Below, piece after piece: positions 9,706 through 30,728 of a stretch of DNA of 53,284 nucleotides; positions within the stretch are counted from its first letter, which is position 1; each line of letters opens with the position of its first letter. Made by a program: the position numbers and the translations under genes. The notes beneath the pieces are model-generated. The model was given only the letters and a program-made list of their open reading frames with translations, did not search any database and was not told where the DNA came from. The stretch is taken from NCBI GenBank assembly GCA_964362195.1, contig CAYICZ010000003.1, positions 1 through 53,284 of the forward strand, given 5' to 3'. The DNA is from an uncultured Gammaproteobacteria bacterium. GTDB lineage: Bacteria; Patescibacteriota; Microgenomatia; Daviesbacterales; UBA10151.

Positions 9706-12700
9706 TTATGCAGCCTCCTTCTCGTCAACTATTTCAAACGGACTCTTTTCTGCTTTGATCTCTTCATCAGTAGCGGTTTCTGTCATACCAAGTGCCTGTT
9801 CCAGTTGGGCAACCTTCTGTATCATTTCCGGCTTTTCTTCTACCTCTGGAGCAGCCACGATTTTAGCACCCAATGTTTCAACTTGCAGACCCAGAGCTTG
9901 CAGTTCTTTAACCAAAACCTTGAAAGATTCCGGAATCAAAGCTTGTGGAATCTCAATACCTTTAACTATTGCCTCAAAAGCTTTAGCCCTTCCCACCACA
10001 TCATCGGATTTTATTGTCAACATCTCCTGCAAAATATGAGCTGCGCCATATGCCTCAAGCGCCCAAACTTCCATCTCTCCCAATCTTTGTCCGCCCATTT
10101 GTGCTTTACCCCCAAGAGGTTGTTGCGTAACAAGTGAGTAGGGACCGGTTGATCTGGCGTGAATTTTTTCCTCAACCATATGAATCAGTTTTAGAATATA
10201 GTTTCTTCCAACCACTATTGTATTTTCAAAAGCTTCACCGGATCTTCCGTCAATCAGCTTTACCTTACCATCTACTGGTAATCCTGCCTTTTTAAGTTCA
10301 GAAATTAATAAATCCTCAGAAATTCTCTCAAAAACTGGCGCAGCAATATTATAACCTAGCTTTTTAGCGGCAAATCCCCAGTGAGTTTCTAAAAGCTGTC
10401 CCAAATTCATACGGGATAGTACTGACAAAGGAGATATAATAATATCTATCGGTGTGCCATCTTCCAAATGAGGCATATCTGCAACCGGTAAAATCCTTGA
10501 AATTACTCCTTTATTTCCATGTCTTCCAGCCAGCTTATCACCCTCAGTGACTTTTCTCATTTGGGCCACCTTGACCTTAATCCTCATCAAAGTCCCTGTA
10601 TCCAGCTCATCCCCATCTTCACGGGATAAAATCTGAATTCCAATAACTGTTCCCCGCTCACCATGTGGAATTCGAAGAGATGTATCACGAACTTCTTTGG
10701 CTTTTTCTCCAAAAATGGCTCTAAGTAATCTCTCCTCTGCAGTTAGCTCTGTTTCACCTTTTGGCTGAACTTTGCCAACCAAAATATCATTTGGTCCAAC
10801 TTCAGCTCCAATTCTGATAATTCCCTTATCATCTAAATTTGCCAGTGCATCCTCAGATACATTTGGAATATCCCGGGTTAGCTCCTCTGGTCCCAGTTTT
10901 GTTTCAACAACATCCACCTCGTATTCTTCAATATGAATTGAAGTCAGTAAGTCTTCTTTGACTAATTTATCTGAAATAACTATCGCATCCTCATAACCTA
11001 ATCCCTCAAAACTCATATAAGCAATTAAAAGATTTTGTCCCAGCGCTAACTCTCCATTTTCAGTAGCTGCTCCATCAATCAAAAGATCACCTTTTTTCAC
11101 TTTTGTTCCAACTGATACAGCTGGTTTTTGAGAATAACAGGTTCCCTGAGGTGAATGAACAAACTTCTTAATCTCATATTTTATTTCTTCTTTCTTACCC
11201 TTGAGGGTAAGTTTTTTACCATCAACTTGAGTTATTAGCCCATCTTCGCTTGCACGAACTATCCTGCCCATATTATCTGCCACAATCCTTTCCATCCCTG
11301 TTCCCACAATCGGGGCATGTGGAATAAGTAACGGTACTGCCTGACATTGCATTTGAGTTCCCATTAAAGCCCGATTTGCATCATCATTTGCTAAAAAAGG
11401 AATAAGTGAGGCTGAAATTCCAAAAATTTGCTGAGGTGAAATATCAATTAATCTTACCATCTTTGCTTCACCTTCATAAAAGTTTCCCTGATACCTTAGC
11501 GGTACTCTTTCATCTTCAATAAATCCTTTGTCAGACACATTCACTGTTGCCTCTGTAACATGATAATCCTCTTCGTCGTCTGCTGAAATATACATAATAT
11601 CATCAGAAATCTTTGGTTTGCCTTTTTCCAAAGATACTCTTCTATATGGAGTTTCTAAAAATCCATATTCGTTAATACGGGCATAAAGCGCCAGGTAAGT
11701 CACCAGTCCAATATTTTGTCCCTCAGGAGACCGGATCGGATCAATTCTTCCGTATTGTGAATGATTAATATCCCGGACAGAAAAGCTGGCACGATCTCTT
11801 GTTATACCGCCTGCCCCCATAACAGAAAGCCGCCTTAAATGATCCAACTCAGAAAGTGGATTAACCTGATCTAAAATTGATGAGAGTTGAGATGAGCGGA
11901 AAAATTCATTGATAGCTGCAATTACAGGTTTTGCATTAATTAATCCTCCTGGTGATACTTCCTGATCAGCAGTTGTTAAACTCATCCTTTCTTTAATAAT
12001 TCGCTCAAGTCTTAAAACTCCAATCCTGAAAGCATTTTGCTGAACTAACTCTCCGGCACATCTGACACGTCTATTTGCCAAATGATCAATATCATCTACT
12101 TTGCCTTCCCTGTTTGTAAGCTTAATAAGATACTTAAGAGTTGCAATAATATCTGTTTTTTTTAAGATCCAATTTTCTTCCGTATTTGATACATCCAAAC
12201 CTAGCTTTTTATTTATCTTAAATCTGCCTACCTTTGTTAGATTATAGCGTCTGCTATTAAAAAACATTCCTTCTAAAAGAGCTTTTGCATTTTCTAACAC
12301 AACAGGATCTCCTGGCCTCATTTTTCTAAATATTTCCAAAAGAGCCTCATCAGTATTAGTTGTCGGGTCTTTAGCTAACGTTAAGTCAATCAATTTTTCC
12401 TCACCAGAATCTACATCACTAAATTGTTCTCTAATTTCTTCATTTTCCGAAAATCCAATAGCCCGAAGTAAAGTTGTCACAGCAAATTTTCTTCTTCGAT
12501 CAATTTTGGCAGTTAAAACACCAGTCCTGGAAACTGAAAACTCAAGCCATGAACCTCTATATGGCCTAACTTCAGCAGAATATAATCTTTTTCCTGTTAT
12601 CGGATCATCTGCTGCAGAAAAAAAGACCCCTGGGGATCTTACTAATTGGTTAATAATAACCCTTTCAACTCCATTAACAATAAAAGTTCCTTTTTCTGTC

Positions 12701-21796: not shown

Positions 21797-23899
21797 TTAG
21801 CTTTCAGTTCCTCCAGCTTGGGAAGCAAAATAGTCATCGGCATTTTTAACTAACACATCTCTGGGTTTTGATCCTTCACCCACTCCTACAATTCCTGCTT
21901 CTTCCAGCTCATCTAAAATCCTGGCAGCCCTGGCATAGCCAACTTTTAATCTTCTTTGAAGTAGCGAGGCCGAAGCCCGATCATATTGGCAAACAGTCCT
22001 GACAGCTTCTTCAAACAAATCATCCCTTTCTCCTGTATTTCCACCTCTTCCTCCAAACCTTCCCAAAGGCATTTCTGTCACCTCTGCTGTAAACTCAGGA
22101 GTAATTCCTGTTGATTTTAAGTATTTAATTAAATTATTAATCTCATCATCCTGCAGAAATACTCCCTGAATACGTATAGGCTTGCTGGCATCAGGAGGCA
22201 AAAATAACATATCACCCCTGCCCAGTAATTTTTCAGCACCCGGCCCATCCAAAATAACCCTGGAGTCAATCATAGATGAAACATTAAAAGCAATCCGACA
22301 GGGGATGTTTGCCTTAATAAGTCCGGTTATAACATCAACTGATGGCCGCTGGGTTGCTATTACTAAATGAATACCCGTAGCTCTGGCAAGTTGAGCAATC
22401 CTGGTGATTGAATCCTCAATTTCAACCGGTGCAAACATCATCAAATCCGCTAGTTCGTCAACAATAATCACAATATAAGGCAGGGCTTGAAATCCTGACA
22501 TCTCATTATACCCGGTGATATTTCTGACTCCAACTGACTGGAACAGCTTATACCTTCTATCCATTTCAGCCATTGACCACTTCAGAGCTGAGAGGATTTT
22601 TTCCGGCTCAGTAATAACAGGGGTCAACAGGTGGGGAATTCCGTTAAAGTTGGTTAGTTCTACTCTTTTCGGATCAATCAATATTAATTTTAACTCATCA
22701 GGGGAGTTTCTAAAAAGCAAAGAGGCAATGATTGAATTTAACATCACTGATTTTCCAGAACCCGTTGTTCCGGCAATTAATACATGGGGCATTTTATCCA
22801 AATCAACGACCATTGAACGGGATGAAGTATCACGCCCCAAAGCCACAGCCAGCTTTGACTTATGTTTTTGCATTTCATCTGAAGCTAAAACGCCTTTTAA
22901 GCCAACTACTTCCAAAGACCTGTTCGGTACCTCAATACCAACTAAGGATTTTCCCGGAATTGGTGCCTCAATCCTGACAGTTCCTGTTGGTGTTGCCAAA
23001 GACAGGGCAATATCATGCTGCAGATTGGCAATTTTGGAAATTTTAGTACCGGCTGAAATACGCAGGGCATATTGAGTCACTGCCGGCCCGCCATTCACCT
23101 CTGCCACATCTGCCTGTATTCCAAATGAATCCAGAGTTTTTTCTATAATATCTGCACTTTTTTTAATATCACCCCGATCAGCTTGAGAACCAACTTTCTC
23201 AGAGAGCAAATTCAAAGTCGGATATTTCCAGACTGCAGACTTTCCAGCCACATTTTGTACCAGCGTATCTGCTAAAATTACCCCTTTTTGAGGCGGGTTA
23301 AGTTTTGTAGAAACTGATGGTCTCTCATCAACTCCTGAGACTTTAATAGGAATATTTTTGGCTTCAAAAGTTCGCTTTCTATTAAATAAAGGTTTGATAA
23401 GTCCTGAAACAGCGCTAAAAATGACCACAAATATTTTAAATATTTGCTGCAATGAAGTATTAAATAACACCACCAGTCCCACTAAAAATACCAACACTAA
23501 GATGGCTCCTGCTCCTGGCGGAGTTACAAATGAGGAAAGCTGTATCCATAAATTTAAGCCAATACTGCCGGCTTGATCTGGTTTTAATCCTCCGGTGATT
23601 CCTACTAAAGATATTAAACTTAAAATAAATCCCAACAGAACATTAAGTTGAGCTAGTCTAAATCTGGCTCTGGTTAGGGTAAGGCCAACAAGCGTAAAAA
23701 GAATTGGTGACAAAATTTTTGCCCAACCCAAATTTTCAATTAAAAAATCCCTCCAGAAGTTAAGTGTTTGCAAATGAGTAGCAATAGTTACCAAAGACAA
23801 AATAGCCAATCCAAAGGCAACCAAAGTCCCGACAGCAGTAATTGTTTTTTGTTTTAATCTTAATTTAGGTAATTTATAAATGGATCTACGTCTTGCCAT
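21797..23899 (-). CDS. ftsK: FtsK/SpoIIIE DNA translocase
   Basis: N-terminal TMs, HVLIAGTTGSGKS, IVDELADLM, ATQRPS, gamma domain SASLLQRRLKVGYARAARI. Confidence 0.97.
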   Translation of the reverse strand: MARRRSIYKLPKLRLKQKTITAVGTLVAFGLAILSLVTIATHLQTLNFWRDFLIENLGWAKILSPILFTLVGLTLTRARFRLAQLNVLLGFILSLISLVGITGGLKPDQAGSIGLNLWIQLSSFVTPPGAGAILVLVFLVGLVVLFNTSLQQIFKIFVVIFSAVSGLIKPLFNRKRTFEAKNIPIKVSGVDERPSVSTKLNPPQKGVILADTLVQNVAGKSAVWKYPTLNLLSEKVGSQADRGDIKKSADIIEKTLDSFGIQADVAEVNGGPAVTQYALRISAGTKISKIANLQHDIALSLATPTGTVRIEAPIPGKSLVGIEVPNRSLEVVGLKGVLASDEMQKHKSKLAVALGRDTSSRSMVVDLDKMPHVLIAGTTGSGKSVMLNSIIASLLFRNSPDELKLILIDPKRVELTNFNGIPHLLTPVITEPEKILSALKWSMAEMDRRYKLFQSVGVRNITGYNEMSGFQALPYIVIIVDELADLMMFAPVEIEDSITRIAQLARATGIHLVIATQRPSVDVITGLIKANIPCRIAFNVSSMIDSRVILDGPGAEKLLGRGDMLFLPPDASKPIRIQGVFLQDDEINNLIKYLKSTGITPEFTAEVTEMPLGRFGGRGGNTGERDDLFEEAVRTVCQYDRASASLLQRRLKVGYARAARILDELEEAGIVGVGEGSKPRDVLVKNADDYFASQAGGTES

Positions 23900-23929: not shown

Positions 23930-25633
23930 TTATACTTCTACTACAACCGGTAAAATAAGCGGTCTCCTTTCTGTTGCTTCATATAAAAATTGCCCCAGCG
24001 ATTCCTCAATCATTTTTCTTAAAAAATGCCAGTCCACGCTTTTGCGGCTGTGGGTTTCCAAAGTTGTCCTGACAAGTTGCTTTGCCTCATCCAGCAGCTT
24101 TGCCGCCATTTCTTCAAAAACAAATCCCCTGGATAATATATCCGGGTCGGCATTTAGCTTTCCGGTGTGCTGATCAACAGACACCACAACTACCACCACT
24201 CCCTCCTCACTCATCTTTTGCCTGTCCCGCAAAATCACATGTCCAATGTCCCCAATACCTAATCCATCAACGTAGATATTTTGTACATCGATTGAATCAG
24301 CAAGAAGCTTAACTTCATCTTTTTTCATCTCTATGATGCTGCCATCTTCCGCATCAATAATTTGTTTTTTATCATAACCCATATCTTGGACCATTTTAGA
24401 AAAAATACTCATATGCCTGAATGTTCCGCCAATAGGCAGGATAAATTTAGGTTTTATTAAATTAATCATAAGTTTTAACTCATCCTGAGCTGCATGCCCG
24501 GAAACATGTAAATCCGAAGTAATTGATGAAGCAATCACATCCACTCCAAGACGGGTTAGCGAATCTATCAGCGAATTTTGAGCAGATTCTGTAGAAGGAA
24601 TCGGGTCTGCAGAAAACATCACACAATCACCCGTCTCTAACTTAACTTGTTTATGTTCTTCATTGGCAGCTCTGGAAAGGGATGACTCAGGCTGACCTTG
24701 TGAACCGGCAATCAAAATCATCACTTTATTTGCAGCATAAGAGTTTATGGCATCAGGAGCAATAATAATTCCTGGCGGAACTTTTAAGTATCCTAAATCC
24801 CGGGAAACCTGAAAATTCTTTTCAAAAGATCTTCCCACAACCGCCACTTTCCGTCCTAATTTTGCTGCCACATTCATTGCCTGCTGCATGCGGGACACAT
24901 TAGATGAAGTCATGGTAATTAACAGTTTTCCTGAAGTATCCAGGACTGCTTTTTCAAATGTCCCTTCGATTGATTTTTCTGATTTATTAAATCCGGGTTT
25001 ATCTGATCTTAAACAATCAATTAATAGTAAATTAACTCCTTCTTCTCCCAATATTGCCGCAGCTCCCACATCTGTCACCTGTCCTGAAACCGGAGTCCAG
25101 TCTATTTTAAAATCAGCCTGATGAATTATTGTCCCCACTGGAGTTTTTAAAACAATACCAGTGGAATCCGGCACAGAATGGGACACTTGATAAAAAGATA
25201 CTTTAAAGTTACCAAATTCCAGTTTTTGATCAACTTTAACCTCGAAGATCTTATTTGTTGGTAGACTTGCTTCCTGAAATTTGTTTCGGATAAAACCGGC
25301 TGTTAAACGTTGGGTATAAATTGGCACTTGCAACTCCGGCCAAATAAAGGGGAGTCCGCCAATATGGTCTTCATGTCCATGAGTTATTAAAATGGCTCTA
25401 ATATTGTTTATTTTTGAGCGAAGATAAGAAATATCAGGGATCACCAAATCAACTCCCGGCATGCCTTCATCCGGAAATCCCACTCCGCAATCAATAATTA
25501 TAATGTCGTTTCCATATTCATAAACATACATATTTTTAGTTACATCTCCAACACCACCAAGCGGGATTAATTTCAAAGACTGGTTGCCGGTATTAAATTG
25601 CGGTATGTTAAATTTTGGTTTAAATGTTTTCAC
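23930..25633 (-). CDS. rnj: Ribonuclease J
   Basis: GTG start; LIPLGGVGDVTKNM, ITHGHEDHIGG, SHSVPD, DFKID, HVSGHA. Confidence 0.96.
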   Translation of the reverse strand: MKTFKPKFNIPQFNTGNQSLKLIPLGGVGDVTKNMYVYEYGNDIIIIDCGVGFPDEGMPGVDLVIPDISYLRSKINNIRAILITHGHEDHIGGLPFIWPELQVPIYTQRLTAGFIRNKFQEASLPTNKIFEVKVDQKLEFGNFKVSFYQVSHSVPDSTGIVLKTPVGTIIHQADFKIDWTPVSGQVTDVGAAAILGEEGVNLLLIDCLRSDKPGFNKSEKSIEGTFEKAVLDTSGKLLITMTSSNVSRMQQAMNVAAKLGRKVAVVGRSFEKNFQVSRDLGYLKVPPGIIIAPDAINSYAANKVMILIAGSQGQPESSLSRAANEEHKQVKLETGDCVMFSADPIPSTESAQNSLIDSLTRLGVDVIASSITSDLHVSGHAAQDELKLMINLIKPKFILPIGGTFRHMSIFSKMVQDMGYDKKQIIDAEDGSIIEMKKDEVKLLADSIDVQNIYVDGLGIGDIGHVILRDRQKMSEEGVVVVVVSVDQHTGKLNADPDILSRGFVFEEMAAKLLDEAKQLVRTTLETHSRKSVDWHFLRKMIEESLGQFLYEATERRPLILPVVVEV

Positions 25634-26649
25634 GATAAGTATTCTCCAAGGTTTTCCTTAGAAATTTTAAATGGTCCTTTTTCTCCTTCTACTAACTTTC
25701 TGGCAACTTTGCGGCAAATTCCCTGAAGGCTTCTTTGCAGCGATCTAATTCCACCGTCAAAGCCCAAGGGTCTGATAATCTGAGGCCAGATTATATCATC
25801 TATTACCAGAACTGCTCTGTCCAGGCCTGATTCATCTATGGCTTTAGGCAGTAAATATGCCCTGCCTATAGTCAGCTTTTCCTCATCTGAGTATGAAGGC
25901 ATCGCAATTGGCTCCAGTCTATCCAAAACAGCTGTTGCTATATTTGCTGTGTTATTGGCAGTTGCTATAAATAACACCTGAGATAAATCATAAGGAAAAT
26001 CCAGGAAGTGGTCAACAAAACTCTTGTTTTGAGCCGGATCCAAAAGCTCAACCAAAACCCCCATTAAATCAGTCCTACTTTCAACTGCTACCCTGTCTAT
26101 TTCATCAAGTAAAATTACAGGATTTGAAACTTTAGCAACTTTTATTGCCTTTGTAATTTGTCCTGCCTCCCCTCCGTCTTGTCCTCTTACCTGTCCTCTT
26201 AAAGTAGCCGGATCTCCTAAACCTCCAAAAGGAATTCTCACTATTGGTCTTCCCAAAGTCTCAGCAATAGACTCTGCCAAAGATGTCTTACCAGTTCCAA
26301 CTAAACCAACCAACAATAAAATGGGAGCATGGAAACTTACGCTTGCATTCTTTTGTTTATGTAAAATTAAAACTGATAAATATTCCAAAACTCTATCTTT
26401 AACAGATTGTAAACCATAGTGATTTTTATCCAAAATCTGCTTAGCCCTTTGTATATCCAAAATATCTTGAGAATATTTATCAAATGGCAAACTCAAGACA
26501 AAATTAACATATGCCATTAATTTTTCCAACTCCACACCAACTCCTGGAAATTTTAAAAGATTAAGTAATTTTTCAGATATATCAAGAGGTAACTTTGTTT
26601 GAGTAATTTTAACTCTTAACTCTTCAATTATATTTAGGGCAGAATCCAT
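25630..26649 (-). CDS. Lon-family AAA+ ATPase module without protease domain
   Basis: LDKNHYGLQSVKDRVLEYL, Walker A GLVGTGKTS, Walker B LLDEID, FVDHFLDFPYDLSQVLFIATAN, LDRLE. Ends before the Ser-Lys domain. Start placed at ATG 26649, with a -10 hexamer 7 nt upstream. Confidence 0.88.
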   Translation of the reverse strand: MDSALNIIEELRVKITQTKLPLDISEKLLNLLKFPGVGVELEKLMAYVNFVLSLPFDKYSQDILDIQRAKQILDKNHYGLQSVKDRVLEYLSVLILHKQKNASVSFHAPILLLVGLVGTGKTSLAESIAETLGRPIVRIPFGGLGDPATLRGQVRGQDGGEAGQITKAIKVAKVSNPVILLDEIDRVAVESRTDLMGVLVELLDPAQNKSFVDHFLDFPYDLSQVLFIATANNTANIATAVLDRLEPIAMPSYSDEEKLTIGRAYLLPKAIDESGLDRAVLVIDDIIWPQIIRPLGFDGGIRSLQRSLQGICRKVARKLVEGEKGPFKISKENLGEYLS

Positions 26650-26746
26650 GCTTCCTATTCTACCCTTTGCAAAGCAAACGGGCAAGGTTCTTGAGCAAAG
26701 CGAAAGGTTCTTACCTCAAACCCTCTAGTTTCCCAAGAGGAGAGTT

Positions 26747-27280
26747 TTATCTGTATTGCATTAAATTTTCACTTAAAATAGCCAAGATTTCGGGCTCAGT
26801 CTCTGCGGGCAATCTATCTTCATGAGTCTGTACAACAAATTTCGCCAATGGGACACTTAAATCTAAATGCGATGCAACATGTATTGATCCTTCGCTATCC
26901 TTCCCCTCAAGATCCATCATGATATCTCCATAAGAGGTATTCATTCTTAAATATACCGCTGAAATTTTTCCAATTCTTGCTGAAAATTTTTGTTCATCCA
27001 TGAAATCTTCCAAAGTTTCCACCTCACCCTTTCCTTCAGAATCTAATATCATTATTGATGGCGGAAAAGCCTTACCGCTTTCAACTGTTGCTGGTTCATC
27101 TCCTAATGTATCTTTCAAAGTTGCCAAAAATTCCCTGGTTCTTTGAAAAAGTTCCCCATTCGGCAAGGAGGTTGACCATTGAAGTTTAAAATAGTCTGGT
27201 TTGGTTTCTAAAGAGCCTAATTGACGGCCTGCTATTATAACCTGTGCAACTGCTTCTACCATAATCGGGGATACTACCAT
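26747..27280 (-). CDS. Hypothetical protein (about 177 aa)
   Basis: Open frame with globular composition. Start placed at MVVSP (27280) because the longer ORF overlaps the divergent TA promoter and gene. Confidence 0.55.
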   Translation of the reverse strand: MVVSPIMVEAVAQVIIAGRQLGSLETKPDYFKLQWSTSLPNGELFQRTREFLATLKDTLGDEPATVESGKAFPPSIMILDSEGKGEVETLEDFMDEQKFSARIGKISAVYLRMNTSYGDIMMDLEGKDSEGSIHVASHLDLSVPLAKFVVQTHEDRLPAETEPEILAILSENLMQYR

Positions 27281-27333
27281 GAAGTTTTTTAAAAAGCAAG
27301 TTTGACGGTTAAAGCTGCCGCCTTTTTGATTAA

Positions 27334-27370
27334 TTGACAAGGAAAATCTTTTGTAATACAATATGTTACA
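27334..27370 (+). promoter_or_regulatory. Promoter and inverted-repeat operator of the RHH-PIN module
   Basis: TTGACA (27334-39), 17 nt, TACAAT (27357-62). TGTAA-N9-TTACA (27352-27370) overlaps the -10. Confidence 0.7.
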
Positions 27371-27371
27371 T

Positions 27372-27602
27372 ATGCAAACACAGCAAAGGGCAATTATGAA
27401 CATTTCCATGCCTCCTGCTATGGCAAAAAGGGTAACTAAAATGGCCAAAGAAGAAAATAAAACTAAAAGTGAATTTATAAGAAAAGCTATCAGAATTTAT
27501 GAGTTTAAAAGGGATTGGGCAAAGATTAGAGCTTGGGGAAGGGAAACAGCTCGTAAGATGAATATTAGGACATATGATGATGTTGAGCGGATTGCTGGAT
27601 GA
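27372..27602 (+). CDS. CopG/RHH antitoxin
   Basis: IMNISMPPAMAKRVTKMAKEENKTKSEFIRKAI is a ribbon-helix-helix. Start placed at 27372, downstream of the -10. Confidence 0.85.
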   Translation: MQTQQRAIMNISMPPAMAKRVTKMAKEENKTKSEFIRKAIRIYEFKRDWAKIRAWGRETARKMNIRTYDDVERIAG

Positions 27603-28027
27603 GGATAGTTTTAGATACTAATGTTTATATTGGGGCAGCTCTTCAAGGAGAGTTAACAGAGGATATTCTAGAGTGGATAACTGAAAATCCAGATGTTTAT
27701 CTAATAATTTCAGAAGAAATACTACTTGAGATAGAACGAAAACTCCAGGAAAAATTTCACTGGTCAGCAGAAAGAATCGTGCTTTTTCTAAACAGAATTA
27801 GAAAACTAGCTGAGATAGTAACACCAATTGAAAAATTAGATATTATTAAAAGAGACCCTAAAGATAACAAGATTTTGGAATGTAGCTTAGCAGGAAATGC
27901 TGATTTAATTGTAACTGCAGATCAAGACCTGATTAAGCTGAAAAGTTTTAAAGGAATTGGAATTATTCATCCAAAAACCTTTTCCTGGACATTTCCAGAA
28001 TATTTTAAGAAGATTAAAGAAAATTAG
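27599..28027 (+). CDS. PIN-family toxin (VapC-like)
   Basis: MRIVLDTNVYIGA, ILLEI, RDPKDNKILECSLAGNADLIVTADQDL. Confidence 0.92.
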   Translation: MRIVLDTNVYIGAALQGELTEDILEWITENPDVYLIISEEILLEIERKLQEKFHWSAERIVLFLNRIRKLAEIVTPIEKLDIIKRDPKDNKILECSLAGNADLIVTADQDLIKLKSFKGIGIIHPKTFSWTFPEYFKKIKEN

Positions 28028-30333
28028 CGGTCAAAGCCGCTGCGGCCACCTCTGGATCCGCCTCTATCTCTACTGCCAGCATATCCACTAGATCTTCCAC
28101 CTGATGATCTACCAAATCCCCCGCCTGATGGTCTAAATCCTCCACTACTTCTATAACCTCCACTTGAAGGCCTTGGCCTGTCTGAAAAAGACGGTCTGGG
28201 CCTAAAGCCAGCACTAGAACGGGGCCTACTTTCTGATTCTGGTTTTATATCTGCTCCAAAAAGCATTGATAAACCAACCTTCCCATCAGGTGAAACATCT
28301 GTAACTCTTACCTTAACTTCCTGTCCCTCAGAAACAACATCTTCTGGTTTTTCAACCCTACCTGGAGCCATTTGCGAAATATGGACCAGTCCATCTTTGC
28401 CGGGAGAAATCTCCACAAATGCTCCAAAGGCTGCCAGTCTAACAACTTTTCCGACAAACTCATCCCCCACCTGAACCTTTTTAAACATGCCCTCAATTTC
28501 GCTCATTGCATTCTTTACGCTATCAACACCAACAGCTGAAATTGTGACAGTTCCATCATCTTCAATATCTATTTGGGCTCCGGTTTTGGCAATAATTCCA
28601 TTAATTGTTTTTCCACCTGTGCCAATTAAAAGTCCTATTTCTGATGGATCAATATGCATTGTTTCAATTCTTGGAGCATAAGCAGACAAAGGTCCAACAG
28701 ACGGGATAACTTTATTCATCTGTTCCAATATATTCATTCTGGCTTGTTTACCCTGTTTCAGCGCTTCCTCAATTATTTCAAAAGATAGTCCATCCAGCTT
28801 TGTATCCATTTGAATGGCGGTAATGCCATTTTTGGTTCCGGCAATTTTAAAATCCATCTCTCCATAAAAATCTTCCACCGCCCTCATGTCTGTAATAACC
28901 TGGAATTTTTTTTCATCTGAAAATAGTCCCATGGCAATTCCGGCCACCGGTGTAATTAAAGGCACACCGGCATTCAAAAGTGCCAGCGAGGTAGCACAAA
29001 CATCAGCTTGGGAGGTGGAAGCATTTGCCGCTAAAACTTCAGATACTACTCTGATAGCATAAGGAAATTGAGCAGGGGCGGGGATAACCGGCAGGATAGC
29101 TTTTTCTGCTAAACCTCCGTGTCCCACATCACGTCTGTTAGGAGAGCCTATCCTTTTGACCTCACCCACTGAAAAAGGATTAATGCTCATATTGTAATAG
29201 TGCATAAACCTCTTTTTCCTCTCCCCTTCCATACCGTCCAGAGTTTGCTCTAAAGATGGGGCTCCCAGTGTAGCTACAGCTAAGACTTGAGTATCTCCTC
29301 TTTTAAACAAAGCGCTGCCGTGTGTTCTGGGCAGAAGCCCTACTTCCATACTCAAAGGCCTGATTTCCTCCATGGCCCTGCCGTCTACTCTTTTTTGTTT
29401 TTCCAAAACTGTTTCGTGAACTATCTCTTTGGCCACTTTATCAAATATTCCGGAAATTATTTGGGGAGTTAACTTGTCAACATATTGAACTGCCAATTGT
29501 TTTTTGATTAAATCGCCTGTGGCTTCATGCCAGGGATGTTCATTATCAAATAAAGCTGCTTCAATCCTGTCTTTGGTAAGTTTGGTAACCTCTTTTAGCA
29601 GTGCTTCCTCTATTGCTTCCTCAATGTGCGATATTTCCAGCTTTTTCTTGCCTGCCTCTTTACTAAATTCTTCTATTAAAGTAATTATTGCCTGAGACTG
29701 CTCATGTGCTTTTTTAATTCCTTCAAATACTTTATTTTCATCAATTTGCTTAGCTCCTGTTTCTATCATCACTACTTTCTCCTTACCAGATGCCACTAAC
29801 AGCTCCATATTTAGAGATTCGTACTTGTCCATTGTCGGATTTACAACCAGTTCTCCATCTTTTTCTCCAACTCTAACCATTGCAATTGGACCTTTCCAAG
29901 GAACAGAGGAAATAGACAAAGCAGCAGATGCTGCAATTAGCCCTAATACATCCGGATCAGATATGGCATCATAAGATAAAACAGATATAATAACCTGAAC
30001 TTCATTCATCTTAAATTCTTTGGGAAAAAGGGGTCTGATTGATCTATCAATTAATCTAGCTGTTAAAACCGATTCATCCGTAGGTCTGGCCTCTCTTTTT
30101 ATAAATTTAGAAGAGGAAATTCTTCCTCCGGCATAGTGTTTTTCCACATATTCAACAGACAATGGGAAATAGCCAATATCCTCTTTTAGTTTTTGGGTTG
30201 CAACTGTTGCTAAAACAACTGTTTCACCCCAGGTAGCCACCACAGATGCATCTGACTGCAACGCCAGTTTACCTGTTTCTAATTTAAGTTTTCGACCATT
30301 AAGGTCAATTTCTTTAGTTATTATTTTGTTCAT
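28024..30333 (-). CDS. pnp: Polyribonucleotide nucleotidyltransferase with an Arg/Gly/Ser-rich tail
   Basis: FPLSVEY, ARLIDRSIRPLFP, RTHGSALFKRGDTQ, GEMDFKIAGT, KH and S1 domains. Confidence 0.98.
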   Translation of the reverse strand: MNKIITKEIDLNGRKLKLETGKLALQSDASVVATWGETVVLATVATQKLKEDIGYFPLSVEYVEKHYAGGRISSSKFIKREARPTDESVLTARLIDRSIRPLFPKEFKMNEVQVIISVLSYDAISDPDVLGLIAASAALSISSVPWKGPIAMVRVGEKDGELVVNPTMDKYESLNMELLVASGKEKVVMIETGAKQIDENKVFEGIKKAHEQSQAIITLIEEFSKEAGKKKLEISHIEEAIEEALLKEVTKLTKDRIEAALFDNEHPWHEATGDLIKKQLAVQYVDKLTPQIISGIFDKVAKEIVHETVLEKQKRVDGRAMEEIRPLSMEVGLLPRTHGSALFKRGDTQVLAVATLGAPSLEQTLDGMEGERKKRFMHYYNMSINPFSVGEVKRIGSPNRRDVGHGGLAEKAILPVIPAPAQFPYAIRVVSEVLAANASTSQADVCATSLALLNAGVPLITPVAGIAMGLFSDEKKFQVITDMRAVEDFYGEMDFKIAGTKNGITAIQMDTKLDGLSFEIIEEALKQGKQARMNILEQMNKVIPSVGPLSAYAPRIETMHIDPSEIGLLIGTGGKTINGIIAKTGAQIDIEDDGTVTISAVGVDSVKNAMSEIEGMFKKVQVGDEFVGKVVRLAAFGAFVEISPGKDGLVHISQMAPGRVEKPEDVVSEGQEVKVRVTDVSPDGKVGLSMLFGADIKPESESRPRSSAGFRPRPSFSDRPRPSSGGYRSSGGFRPSGGGFGRSSGGRSSGYAGSRDRGGSRGGRSGFDR

Positions 30334-30458: not shown

Positions 30459-30728
30459 TTACTTTGATAAACCTAATTTGTCTATAACAATCTTGTATCT
30501 TTCCGTATCTTTTTTAAATAAATACTGCAAGAGTCTCCTTCTTTTGTTAACCATTGATAAGAGCCCTCTTCTTGAATGAATATCGTGAGTGTGTTCTTTT
30601 AAATGAGAAGCTAAATTCTTAATCTGTTCTGTTAAAAGGGCAACTTGTACTTCAGGAGAACCTGTGTCCCCGCTCTTGGTTGCAAACTCTTTAATTATTT
30701 TCTGCTTTATCTTTGGATCTAATGGCAT
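30459..30728 (-). CDS. rpsO: 30S ribosomal protein S15
   Basis: [30 protein letters not shown]. Confidence 0.99.

Follow-up and report, generated by a model that had tools for sequence, protein, structure and literature searches.

ATP-dependent proteases of the LonA type (TIGR00763/PRK10787) are composed of three domains, an N-domain, an AAA+ module and an S16 Ser-Lys protease domain (Lon_C), and structures are available for, among others, the enzymes from B. subtilis (3m6a), Meiothermus (7fd4) and E. coli (6u5z, 6n2i). Other AAA+ proteins of the HCLR clade, such as ClpX, HslU and RuvB, are stand-alone rings that carry no fused protease. For proteins that keep one Lon module while another is lost or inactivated, precedents are LonC of Meiothermus and the Lon_C-like domains of RadA and ComM. 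Here we describe a gene, called lonAAA, on a DNA stretch of 53,284 nucleotides (contig CAYICZ010000003.1 of assembly GCA_964362195.1; the whole stretch is referred to as the window). It encodes a stand-alone LonA-type AAA+ module which lacks both other Lon domains, and it is followed directly by rnj, the gene for RNase J. The stretch has a GC content of 37% and its contig was matched at 100% identity in one groundwater metagenome run. Its closest named relatives belong to Candidatus Daviesbacteria (Microgenomates, candidate phyla radiation (CPR)/Patescibacteria).

The lonAAA product consists of a helical bundle, an alpha/beta ATPase domain and a Lon lid, and is ~40-44% identical to the LonA enzymes over the whole AAA+ module. 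The Pfam matches are AAA (68.6 bits) and Lon_lid (33.6 bits) only, both above their gathering scores. The lon model TIGR00763 is matched at positions 253-568 of 795 with 303.8 bits, which is half its cutoff of 608.05, and PRK10787 at positions 244-579 of 784 with 236.1 bits (cutoff 891). The top PDB sequence matches are the Lon AAA+ modules 3m6a, 8k3y and 6n2i (E 1e-67 to 1e-69, residues 5-338). The protein is the equivalent of residues ~244-579 of E. coli Lon, i.e. of the LonA AAA+ module alone, and it resembles the ClpX, HslU and RuvB families only marginally (E 1e-3 to 1e-2). Neither Pfam nor profile hidden Markov models (HMMs) for Lon_C and the Lon N-domain detected these domains in the product, and since the S16 protease domain is absent, the product itself cannot degrade protein. 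Among five features of LonA, lonAAA has one, the LonA-type AAA+ module with Lon lid, and lacks four: the protease domain, the N-domain, the aromatic pair in the pore loop and a score above the equivalog cutoff. The reading frame starts with the ATG at 26649 and ends with the TGA at 25632-25630 on the minus strand (coding part 25633..26649). A longer, TTG-started open reading frame (ORF) reaching to 26685 is unsupported, as the homologues all start at the methionine of MDSA.

With LonA the protein shares the preceding helical bundle, the Lon lid, Walker A and B, the sensor-1 Asn, the Arg finger and the sensor-2 Arg (Table 1). Seven residues are invariant in 253 out of 253 family members: K121 and T122 of Walker A, D182 and E183 of Walker B, N232 of sensor-1, the Arg finger R244 and R302 of sensor-2. 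The corresponding residues of Lon are N473 for sensor-1, R484, which acts as an Arg finger in trans across the subunit interface, and R542 for sensor-2 (PMC7239648). The equivalents of R396 and E458 of Lon are kept as well. The family can be told from canonical Lon by its Walker A signature GLxGxGKT, as compared to GPPGVGKT, and by G296 and D298 instead of T and E before sensor-2. By its residues, the family has the full catalytic set of a competent AAA+ ATPase. An earlier model-made reading of the bare DNA sequence (the original prediction) had stated that Walker A/B, sensor-1 and the Arg finger are retained while the N-domain and the Ser-Lys protease domain are missing; the motifs lie at the named places in the translation, and Pfam, the spans of TIGR00763 and PRK10787 and the domain HMMs all agree with the second statement. 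The span given for the gene, 25630-26662, was essentially right, except that it reaches 13 nt beyond the ATG on the upstream side. One further position varies: the column of the 'bridging glutamate' of Lon, E447 (PMC7239648), holds A206 in the window (26032-26034, minus strand), Ala in 144 and Glu in 85 of 253 family members, and Glu in 51 of 72 canonical Lons; this change may alter inter-subunit coupling.

The family departs from LonA in the loops that line the central pore. In 72 canonical Lons, pore loop 1 hardly varies from [IL]RGHRRTY[IV]GAMPG[RK]I (canonical loop GHRRTYIGAMPG), and Y398 and I399 of Lon hold the substrate backbone as a pincer (PMC7239648). In a HMMER alignment to B. subtilis Lon the window reads RGQVRGQDGGEAG opposite RGHRRTYVGAMPG, and Q157-D158 occupy the positions of Y398 and I399 (E. 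coli/Y. pestis numbering). The Tyr column, which is Y in 72 out of 72 canonical Lons, holds R in 111, K in 48, H in 12, E in 18 and F in 17 of the 253 family members, with others in the rest; R, K or H together account for 171 (68%). Any aromatic residue within the five-residue tip occurs in 30 of 253 members as compared to all 72 canonical Lons. The family has a consensus of its own, L-R-G-x-S-R-x-[RK]-P-D-A-E-P-G-Q-I, the flanks of which are well conserved (R 248, G 253, S 205, R/K 250, D/E 233, E 245, P 204 and G 247 of 253). The tip changes freely, with one-residue insertions and deletions, even among relatives of the window that are at least 75% identical overall (e.g. GQSRQK-DGESG and GQARGKNEGEPG), and the window's own tip, GQVRGQDGGEAG, is an outlier even among its closest relatives. 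Pore loop 2 of the family is devoid of the Met, Trp and Phe of canonical Lon and reads RVAVESRTD in the window. Pore loop 1 is thus re-specified and not randomly decayed, being hydrophilic, with conserved flanks and a variable, mostly basic tip, and the constraint on the tip is unlike that expected of a residue that grips a translocating polymer. The original prediction of a degenerate pore loop with no aromatic residue was correct as to the aromatic, which the Tyr column retains in 21 of 253 members, but the loop is not simply degenerate: it is a distinct motif with conserved flanks.

The same architecture is widespread in the CPR. A word-indexed search of 5.8 billion proteins gave thousands of matches, and the best 120 are all 338-367 amino acids long and 73-84% identical to lonAAA. 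In a survey of GTDB contigs (one genome per species, loci taken with ±10 kb), 80 out of 80 Microgenomates loci, from Daviesbacteria, Levy-, Gottesman-, Roizman-, Woese- and Amesbacteria, carry a gene for 330-371 amino acids with identities down to 50%. Stop-to-stop frames at these loci reach 483 amino acids at most, and 79 of the 80 have 404 or fewer. A profile of distant members added 41 loci from Dojkabacteria/WS6, WWE3, Woyke- and Shapirobacteria, all AAA-only, which brings the CPR loci with the same ~340-residue architecture to 121. With 121 independent loci, the recurrence is not due to chance. The HMMs mentioned above, for Lon_C and for the N-domain of Lon, were derived from 69 canonical Lons. 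They detected their targets in 38-39 canonical Lon loci that served as positive controls; they had no match in the 53-kb window or within ±10 kb of the 121 CPR loci. An exhaustive HMMER search, covering 1.84 billion cluster representatives, likewise found no family representative with Lon_C. In this search the nearest full-length Lons, 40-44% identical, came from Clostridiales and Ktedonobacterales and not from CPR.

The family forms a discrete set: members score at least 370 bits with the family HMM and canonical Lons at most 357, and, when compared with 45 canonical Lons and 34 modules taken from tandem-AAA Lons, it came out monophyletic in 99 out of 100 neighbour-joining bootstraps. Divergence within the family is 0.81, as compared to 0.72 across the sampled canonical LonA proteins; being as large as that of the sampled LonA, it indicates that the family is old. 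The ratio omega of nonsynonymous (dN) to synonymous (dS) divergence was calculated according to Nei and Gojobori for three genome pairs with unsaturated dS. The values for lonAAA were 0.030, 0.095 and 0.044, and those for the neighbouring genes in the same pairs were 0.042, 0.079 and 0.042 (rnj), 0.042, 0.123 and 0.047 (pnp) and 0.034, 0.062 and 0.071 (ftsK). Median dN over all pairs was 0.37 for lonAAA, 0.52 for rnj, 0.40 for pnp and 0.38 for ftsK. Purifying selection on lonAAA is as strong as on RNase J, PNPase and FtsK. The suggestion that the gene codes for a repurposed ATPase and did not arise by a recent break is borne out by the 121 AAA-only loci, omega values of 0.03-0.10 and residues invariant in 253/253 members. 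The two findings named beforehand as speaking against it did not appear: relatives carry no full-length lon at this place (80/80 Microgenomates and 41 further CPR loci are AAA-only), and selection is not relaxed, omega being indistinguishable from that of rnj, pnp and ftsK.

UGA is read as Gly in some CPR, but recoding of the stop codon was rejected: TAA (69), TGA (27) and TAG (24) all occur at the family stop, and reading through the TGA in the window ends after 18 codons. The extra part of the long representatives P0141 (669 amino acids), P0134, P0143, P0158 and P0166 is a low-complexity tail rich in Q, P, S and T; the tails had no Pfam match and no match to neighbouring genes, and a fused domain was discarded. 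An apparent second ORF of the lonAAA family beside lonAAA in locus L118 is an ORF of 100 amino acids only and not a full paralogue.

The top scorers of the exhaustive search were tandem-AAA Lons (P0121-P0137), proteins of 889-1675 amino acids in which two or three tandem AAA+ modules are followed by one Lon_C (AAA-AAA-Lon_C, AAA-AAA-AAA-Lon_C), which may represent an undescribed 'multi-ring Lon' architecture. Like lonAAA, they have LonA-type AAA+ modules with Lon lids. Unlike lonAAA, they possess Lon_C, lie outside the clade of the family and, for the most part, retain an aromatic pore-loop residue in one module or more. In some, such as P0124, both modules have canonical pore loops, and in others the loops are degenerate. 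Use of these proteins as a 'Rosetta stone' for stacked rings was rejected, as they keep aromatic pore loops and lie outside the clade.

The order rpsO-pnp-lonAAA-rnj-ftsK is characteristic of the Microgenomates loci. There, rnj follows lonAAA in the same orientation in 74 of 80 cases, within 100 nt in most, and in most of the loci pnp precedes lonAAA and ftsK follows rnj. In the window, the overlap of stop and start reads TCGTGAAAAC, and a GGAG inside lonAAA lies 10-13 nt before the rnj GTG; the downstream product is confirmed as RNase J by TIGR00649 (537.7 bits, cutoff 400). The lonAAA-to-rnj gap is 30 nt or less in 46 of 86 loci, with overlap in 17 and a 4-nt overlap in 12 relatives, and this junction is the tightest of three, the median distance being ~20 nt from lonAAA to rnj, ~130 nt from pnp to lonAAA and ~54 nt from rnj to ftsK. 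The pnp-lonAAA spacer takes up insertions while the lonAAA/rnj overlap is kept; an independently gene-called relative, L161, shares the order and the 4-nt overlap and has other insertions in the pnp-lonAAA spacer. No terminator-like site was found between lonAAA and rnj in the window, where promoter and terminator scans performed no better than shuffled controls. A promoter-like TTGCCC-17-TAGAAT at 26657-26685 (minus strand), with a match of only 9/12, ends 8 nt before the lonAAA ATG; it would imply a nearly leaderless transcript, and such sites are no commoner than in shuffled sequences. In an RNA-labelled aquatic run, contigs of relatives cover both genes and one crosses the junction, a weak indication since contaminating DNA is possible. 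That the lonAAA stop overlaps the rnj GTG (GTGA) and that no protease half follows had been predicted correctly. The proposed coupling to RNase J holds, as gene linkage, for Microgenomatia (74/80) and for WWE3-type genomes, with other genes between the two in the WWE3-type loci, but not for Dojkabacteria, in which the genes are unlinked.

Table 1. Positions of lonAAA, its sequence motifs and neighbouring genes in the window.
Feature	Position	Strand	Basis
lonAAA, complete coding sequence, stand-alone LonA-type AAA+ module, 339 amino acids plus TGA stop	25630..26649	-	Translation, Pfam/NCBIfam, PDB sequence matches
Walker A, GLVGTGKTS	26281-26307	-	Translation
Pore loop 1, LRGQVRGQDGGEAG, no aromatic	26161-26202	-	Translation, HMMER alignment
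Walker B and pore loop 2, RVAVESRTD	26068..26115	-	Translation, family alignment
Walker B, ILLDEID	26095-26115	-	Translation
Sensor-1, TANN	25951-25962	-	Translation
Trans-acting arginine finger, LDRLE	25912-25926	-	Translation
Lon lid (alpha sub-domain, Pfam PF22667), includes sensor-2	25678..25833	-	Pfam
Sensor-2, GGIRSL	25738-25755	-	Translation
lonAAA TGA stop overlapping rnj GTG start (GTGA)	25630..25633	-	Sequence
rnj, RNase J, 567 amino acids, directly downstream of lonAAA	23930..25633	-	RNase_J_b_CASP, RNase_J_C; TIGR00649
ftsK, 700 amino acids, next in cluster	21797..23899	-	Named from homologues matching FtsK Pfam families
pnp, polynucleotide phosphorylase (PNPase), 769 amino acids, upstream; separated from lonAAA by lineage-specific insertions	28024..30333	-	Homologous loci
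rpsO, ribosomal protein S15, head of rpsO-pnp unit	30459..30728	-	Gene context

The explanation we prefer is that of an intact, stand-alone Lon-derived ATPase which no longer threads polypeptides and serves as an accessory of RNase J or RNA decay; taken as a whole, we give it a probability of roughly 0.5, and its parts differ in strength. That the family is a functional, non-proteolytic ATPase family derived from Lon is close to certain. The product would assemble as an ATP-hydrolysing ring, since the invariant trans-acting Arg finger makes sense only in an oligomer. From the altered pore loops, it is probable that Lon-type threading has been lost, in which case the ring would no longer move a polypeptide hand over hand. 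In Microgenomatia, including the window, lonAAA would be co-transcribed with rnj and often translationally coupled to it. Given this predicted co-transcription and coupling, the likeliest role may be to assist RNase J or the RNA-decay machinery in an ATP-dependent way, through assembly, remodelling or regulation, and not to serve as a protease subunit. A specific partnership with RNase J or RNA decay is nevertheless proposed tentatively and is not the likelier outcome. More doubtful still is the idea that the Lon-derived ring is a dedicated ATP-driven part of an RNA-decay machine specific to the CPR, in which the ring might associate with RNase J, perhaps also with PNPase, and either act on the nuclease by remodelling or activating it or deal with RNA or ribonucleoprotein substrates via its re-specified, charged central loops. 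A functional parallel for such a partnership is Cdc48a of Haloferax volcanii, which associates in an ATP-dependent manner with a complex of the nucleases aRNase J and RecJ3/4 (PMC10470531). Cdc48a differs from lonAAA in belonging to the Cdc48 clade, in its double ring, archaeal host and link to ubiquitin-like proteins, and in that the association was found biochemically, that of lonAAA being deduced from the operon only.

Several observations weigh against the preferred explanation. The link to RNase J is one of gene order, and the nusA-infB-rpsO-pnp...rnj-ftsK region is an inherited housekeeping cluster, so that the adjacency of lonAAA and rnj may be historical. In WWE3-type loci, genes for a NUDIX hydrolase and a family-4 uracil-DNA glycosylase (UDG) stand between lonAAA and rnj, and in Dojkabacteria the linkage is lost and the gene occurs in unrelated contexts. 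None of rnj, pnp and ftsK is found within 10 kb of the Dojkabacteria lonAAA, the neighbours of which, in orders such as glyA-thyX-dcd-sufS-lonAAA or yidC-jag-L25-lonAAA, we take by eye from their translations to be these genes. As to the loss of threading, the ~8% of members with an aromatic at the Tyr column do not fit. An AlphaFold2 model of lonAAA, made from an alignment of 49 family sequences, had a mean predicted local distance difference test score of 58.6 and no beta-strands in the ATPase core, and was unusable because the alignment was too shallow (73-84% identity); the fold assignment therefore relies on the sequence matches to solved Lon structures.

The strongest competitor holds that lonAAA is a general, non-degradative remodeller, a chaperone-like ATPase or 'Lon chaperone', and that its position next to rnj is an inherited order without functional meaning. 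We regard this as possible, though rather unlikely. The family is under strong constraint in Dojkabacteria, away from rnj, pnp and ftsK, so its function cannot depend on that adjacency; moreover, the cluster belongs to a widely conserved housekeeping block, and the helical bundle, which in Lon is the entry portal, is kept. On the other hand, the aromatic/hydrophobic pair by which AAA+ remodellers grip polypeptides is gone and the loop tip is poorly conserved, the N-terminal substrate-recognition domain is absent, and the lonAAA/rnj junction is tighter than its neighbours and is maintained where upstream insertions accumulate.

Alternatively, lonAAA could be one half of a split Lon, a ring that docks on a separate S16 (Lon_C) protease or that joins or modulates a full-length Lon encoded elsewhere. 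Two-component AAA+ proteases, ClpXP and HslUV, do occur in the same HCLR clade, the end of the lonAAA product coincides exactly with the linker in front of the protease domain of Lon, and the AAA-AAA-Lon_C proteins mentioned above indicate that Lon ATPase rings can stack. This is nonetheless unlikely. The partners of two-component proteases are normally encoded by adjacent genes, as with ClpX and HslU, which unlike lonAAA have both neighbouring protease genes and aromatic pore loops, and neither Lon_C nor the Lon N-domain was found in the window or within 10 kb of the 121 loci. A protease partner requires a threading motor, but the gripping Tyr-Ile pair has been lost. Besides, the full-length Lons that came closest in the exhaustive search belong to Clostridiales and Ktedonobacterales instead of CPR, and the tandem-AAA Lons, with their aromatic pore loops, score below single-AAA Lons on the family HMM and lie outside the clade. 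The original suggestion of a modulator of a full Lon hexamer is without support, since no full Lon was seen in the window or within ±10 kb of the loci. As a Lon fragment, lonAAA is also the reverse of LonC: in LonC the protease is kept and the ATPase is inactive, and in lonAAA the ATPase is intact by sequence and the protease is absent.

A role as a nucleic-acid motor, in which basic pore loops bind or translocate RNA and the ring feeds or unwinds substrates for RNase J or PNPase as a helicase-like part of a degradosome, appears improbable. RuvB, a nucleic-acid translocase of the same HCLR clade, shows that the clade is able to act on non-polypeptides, although unlike lonAAA it has DNA-binding elements of its own and a partner, RuvA; Lon itself binds DNA, and the PDB title of 6n2i is 'DNA-binding ATP-dependent protease La'. 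In accordance with such a role, 171 of 253 members have R, K or H at the Tyr position, lonAAA is flanked by pnp and rnj in Microgenomatia, and genes recognised by eye as those of the RNA-binding Jag/KhpB and of L25 adjoin lonAAA in one Dojkabacteria context. However, a contact residue for translocation is expected to be invariant, whereas the basic residue of the family varies, the window and its closest relatives having Q, E, K, N or M there together with insertions and deletions, and the two conserved acidic residues at the base of the loop (D/E and E) would repel phosphate. Finally, a decaying lon remnant heading for loss, as the absence of two of three LonA domains and of the pore-loop aromatic and the unusually divergent loop of the window could suggest, is refuted by the conserved length in 121 loci, the omega of 0.03-0.10, the seven catalytic residues invariant in 253/253 members, the monophyly and age of the family, and the occurrence of all three stop codons at the same position with no read-through frame.

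The lonAAA gene should not be annotated as a Lon protease. Current automatic names differ: JGI lists P0083 as 'ATP-dependent Lon protease', and NCBI uses 'AAA family ATPase' for such proteins. Pfam and NCBIfam searches of lonAAA matched no family-specific model, and full-text searches of the literature found no description of the family. In reconstructions of metabolism and proteostasis, counting lonAAA as Lon would credit Microgenomates, WWE3 and Dojkabacteria with a protease that this gene cannot supply. The family is a natural experiment in which a Lon ATPase ring occurs without protease, N-domain and gripping tyrosine, and it has been conserved while diverging as deeply as the sampled LonA proteins. 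The minimal genomes of CPR have little room for non-essential genes. If the operon link reflects a physical partnership, bacterial RNA decay would gain a new, ATP-dependent component, and a protease motor would have been recruited to RNA metabolism in minimal-genome bacteria. Since lonAAA is small, soluble-looking and easily expressed, the question is directly testable.

The gene order in the window is nusA - infB - ORF - rpsO - pnp - [ribbon-helix-helix (RHH)/PIN, other strand] - [ORF of 233 amino acids] - lonAAA - rnj - ftsK, and further beyond ftsK a tsaC-like gene, a gene for an HTH_25 protein and alaS are found. The genes for an RHH antitoxin (79 amino acids) and a PIN-domain toxin (142 amino acids) lie between pnp and lonAAA at 27363-28027 on the plus strand and overlap by 4 nt. 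In relatives this spacer is an insertion hot spot: in L161 it holds a gene for a Bro-N protein as well as orphan ORFs, and elsewhere it can be as long as 5 kb. The ORF of 233 amino acids at 26747-27448 (minus strand), directly upstream of lonAAA, has no Pfam or NCBIfam match and lacks conservation across the 80 related loci, of which only L035 matches it, over 39 residues; it is specific to the lineage or else no gene at all.

UDG is a second recurrent neighbour of the lonAAA family. Its gene lies between lonAAA and rnj in the WWE3-type loci L091, L092, L094, L107, L116 and L123, accompanied by the NUDIX gene in L091, L092, L094 and L107, and in L108 and L109 it overlaps the lonAAA stop in a context without rnj.

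Variation was also noted in the two nucleases. The C-terminus of the PNPase in the window (28024-28240, minus strand) is a low-complexity tail of ~70 residues rich in Arg, Gly and Ser (...RPRSSAGFRPRPS...GGRSGFDR); in many relatives, tblastn matches to this PNPase stop before the tail (~query residue 690-770), which aligns variably. In the Microgenomates-type loci L053, L060, L061 and L065 (rnj at ~11070-12340), the RNase J match does not extend beyond query residue 436 and ftsK lies at most ~100 nt further downstream, and these RNase J genes appear to be without the C-terminal domain. A tblastn match of E. coli Lon_C (approximate query sequence) in L053, with an E value of 0.04, was dismissed as chance, as it lies in frame inside RNase J and covers an LPIGG-type stretch only. 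Many 'binchicken' third-party annotation (TPA) records of metagenome-assembled genomes that contain these CPR clusters are titled 'uncultured Gammaproteobacteria/Pseudomonadales/Saccharibacteria bacterium', and such titles are unreliable for taxonomy.

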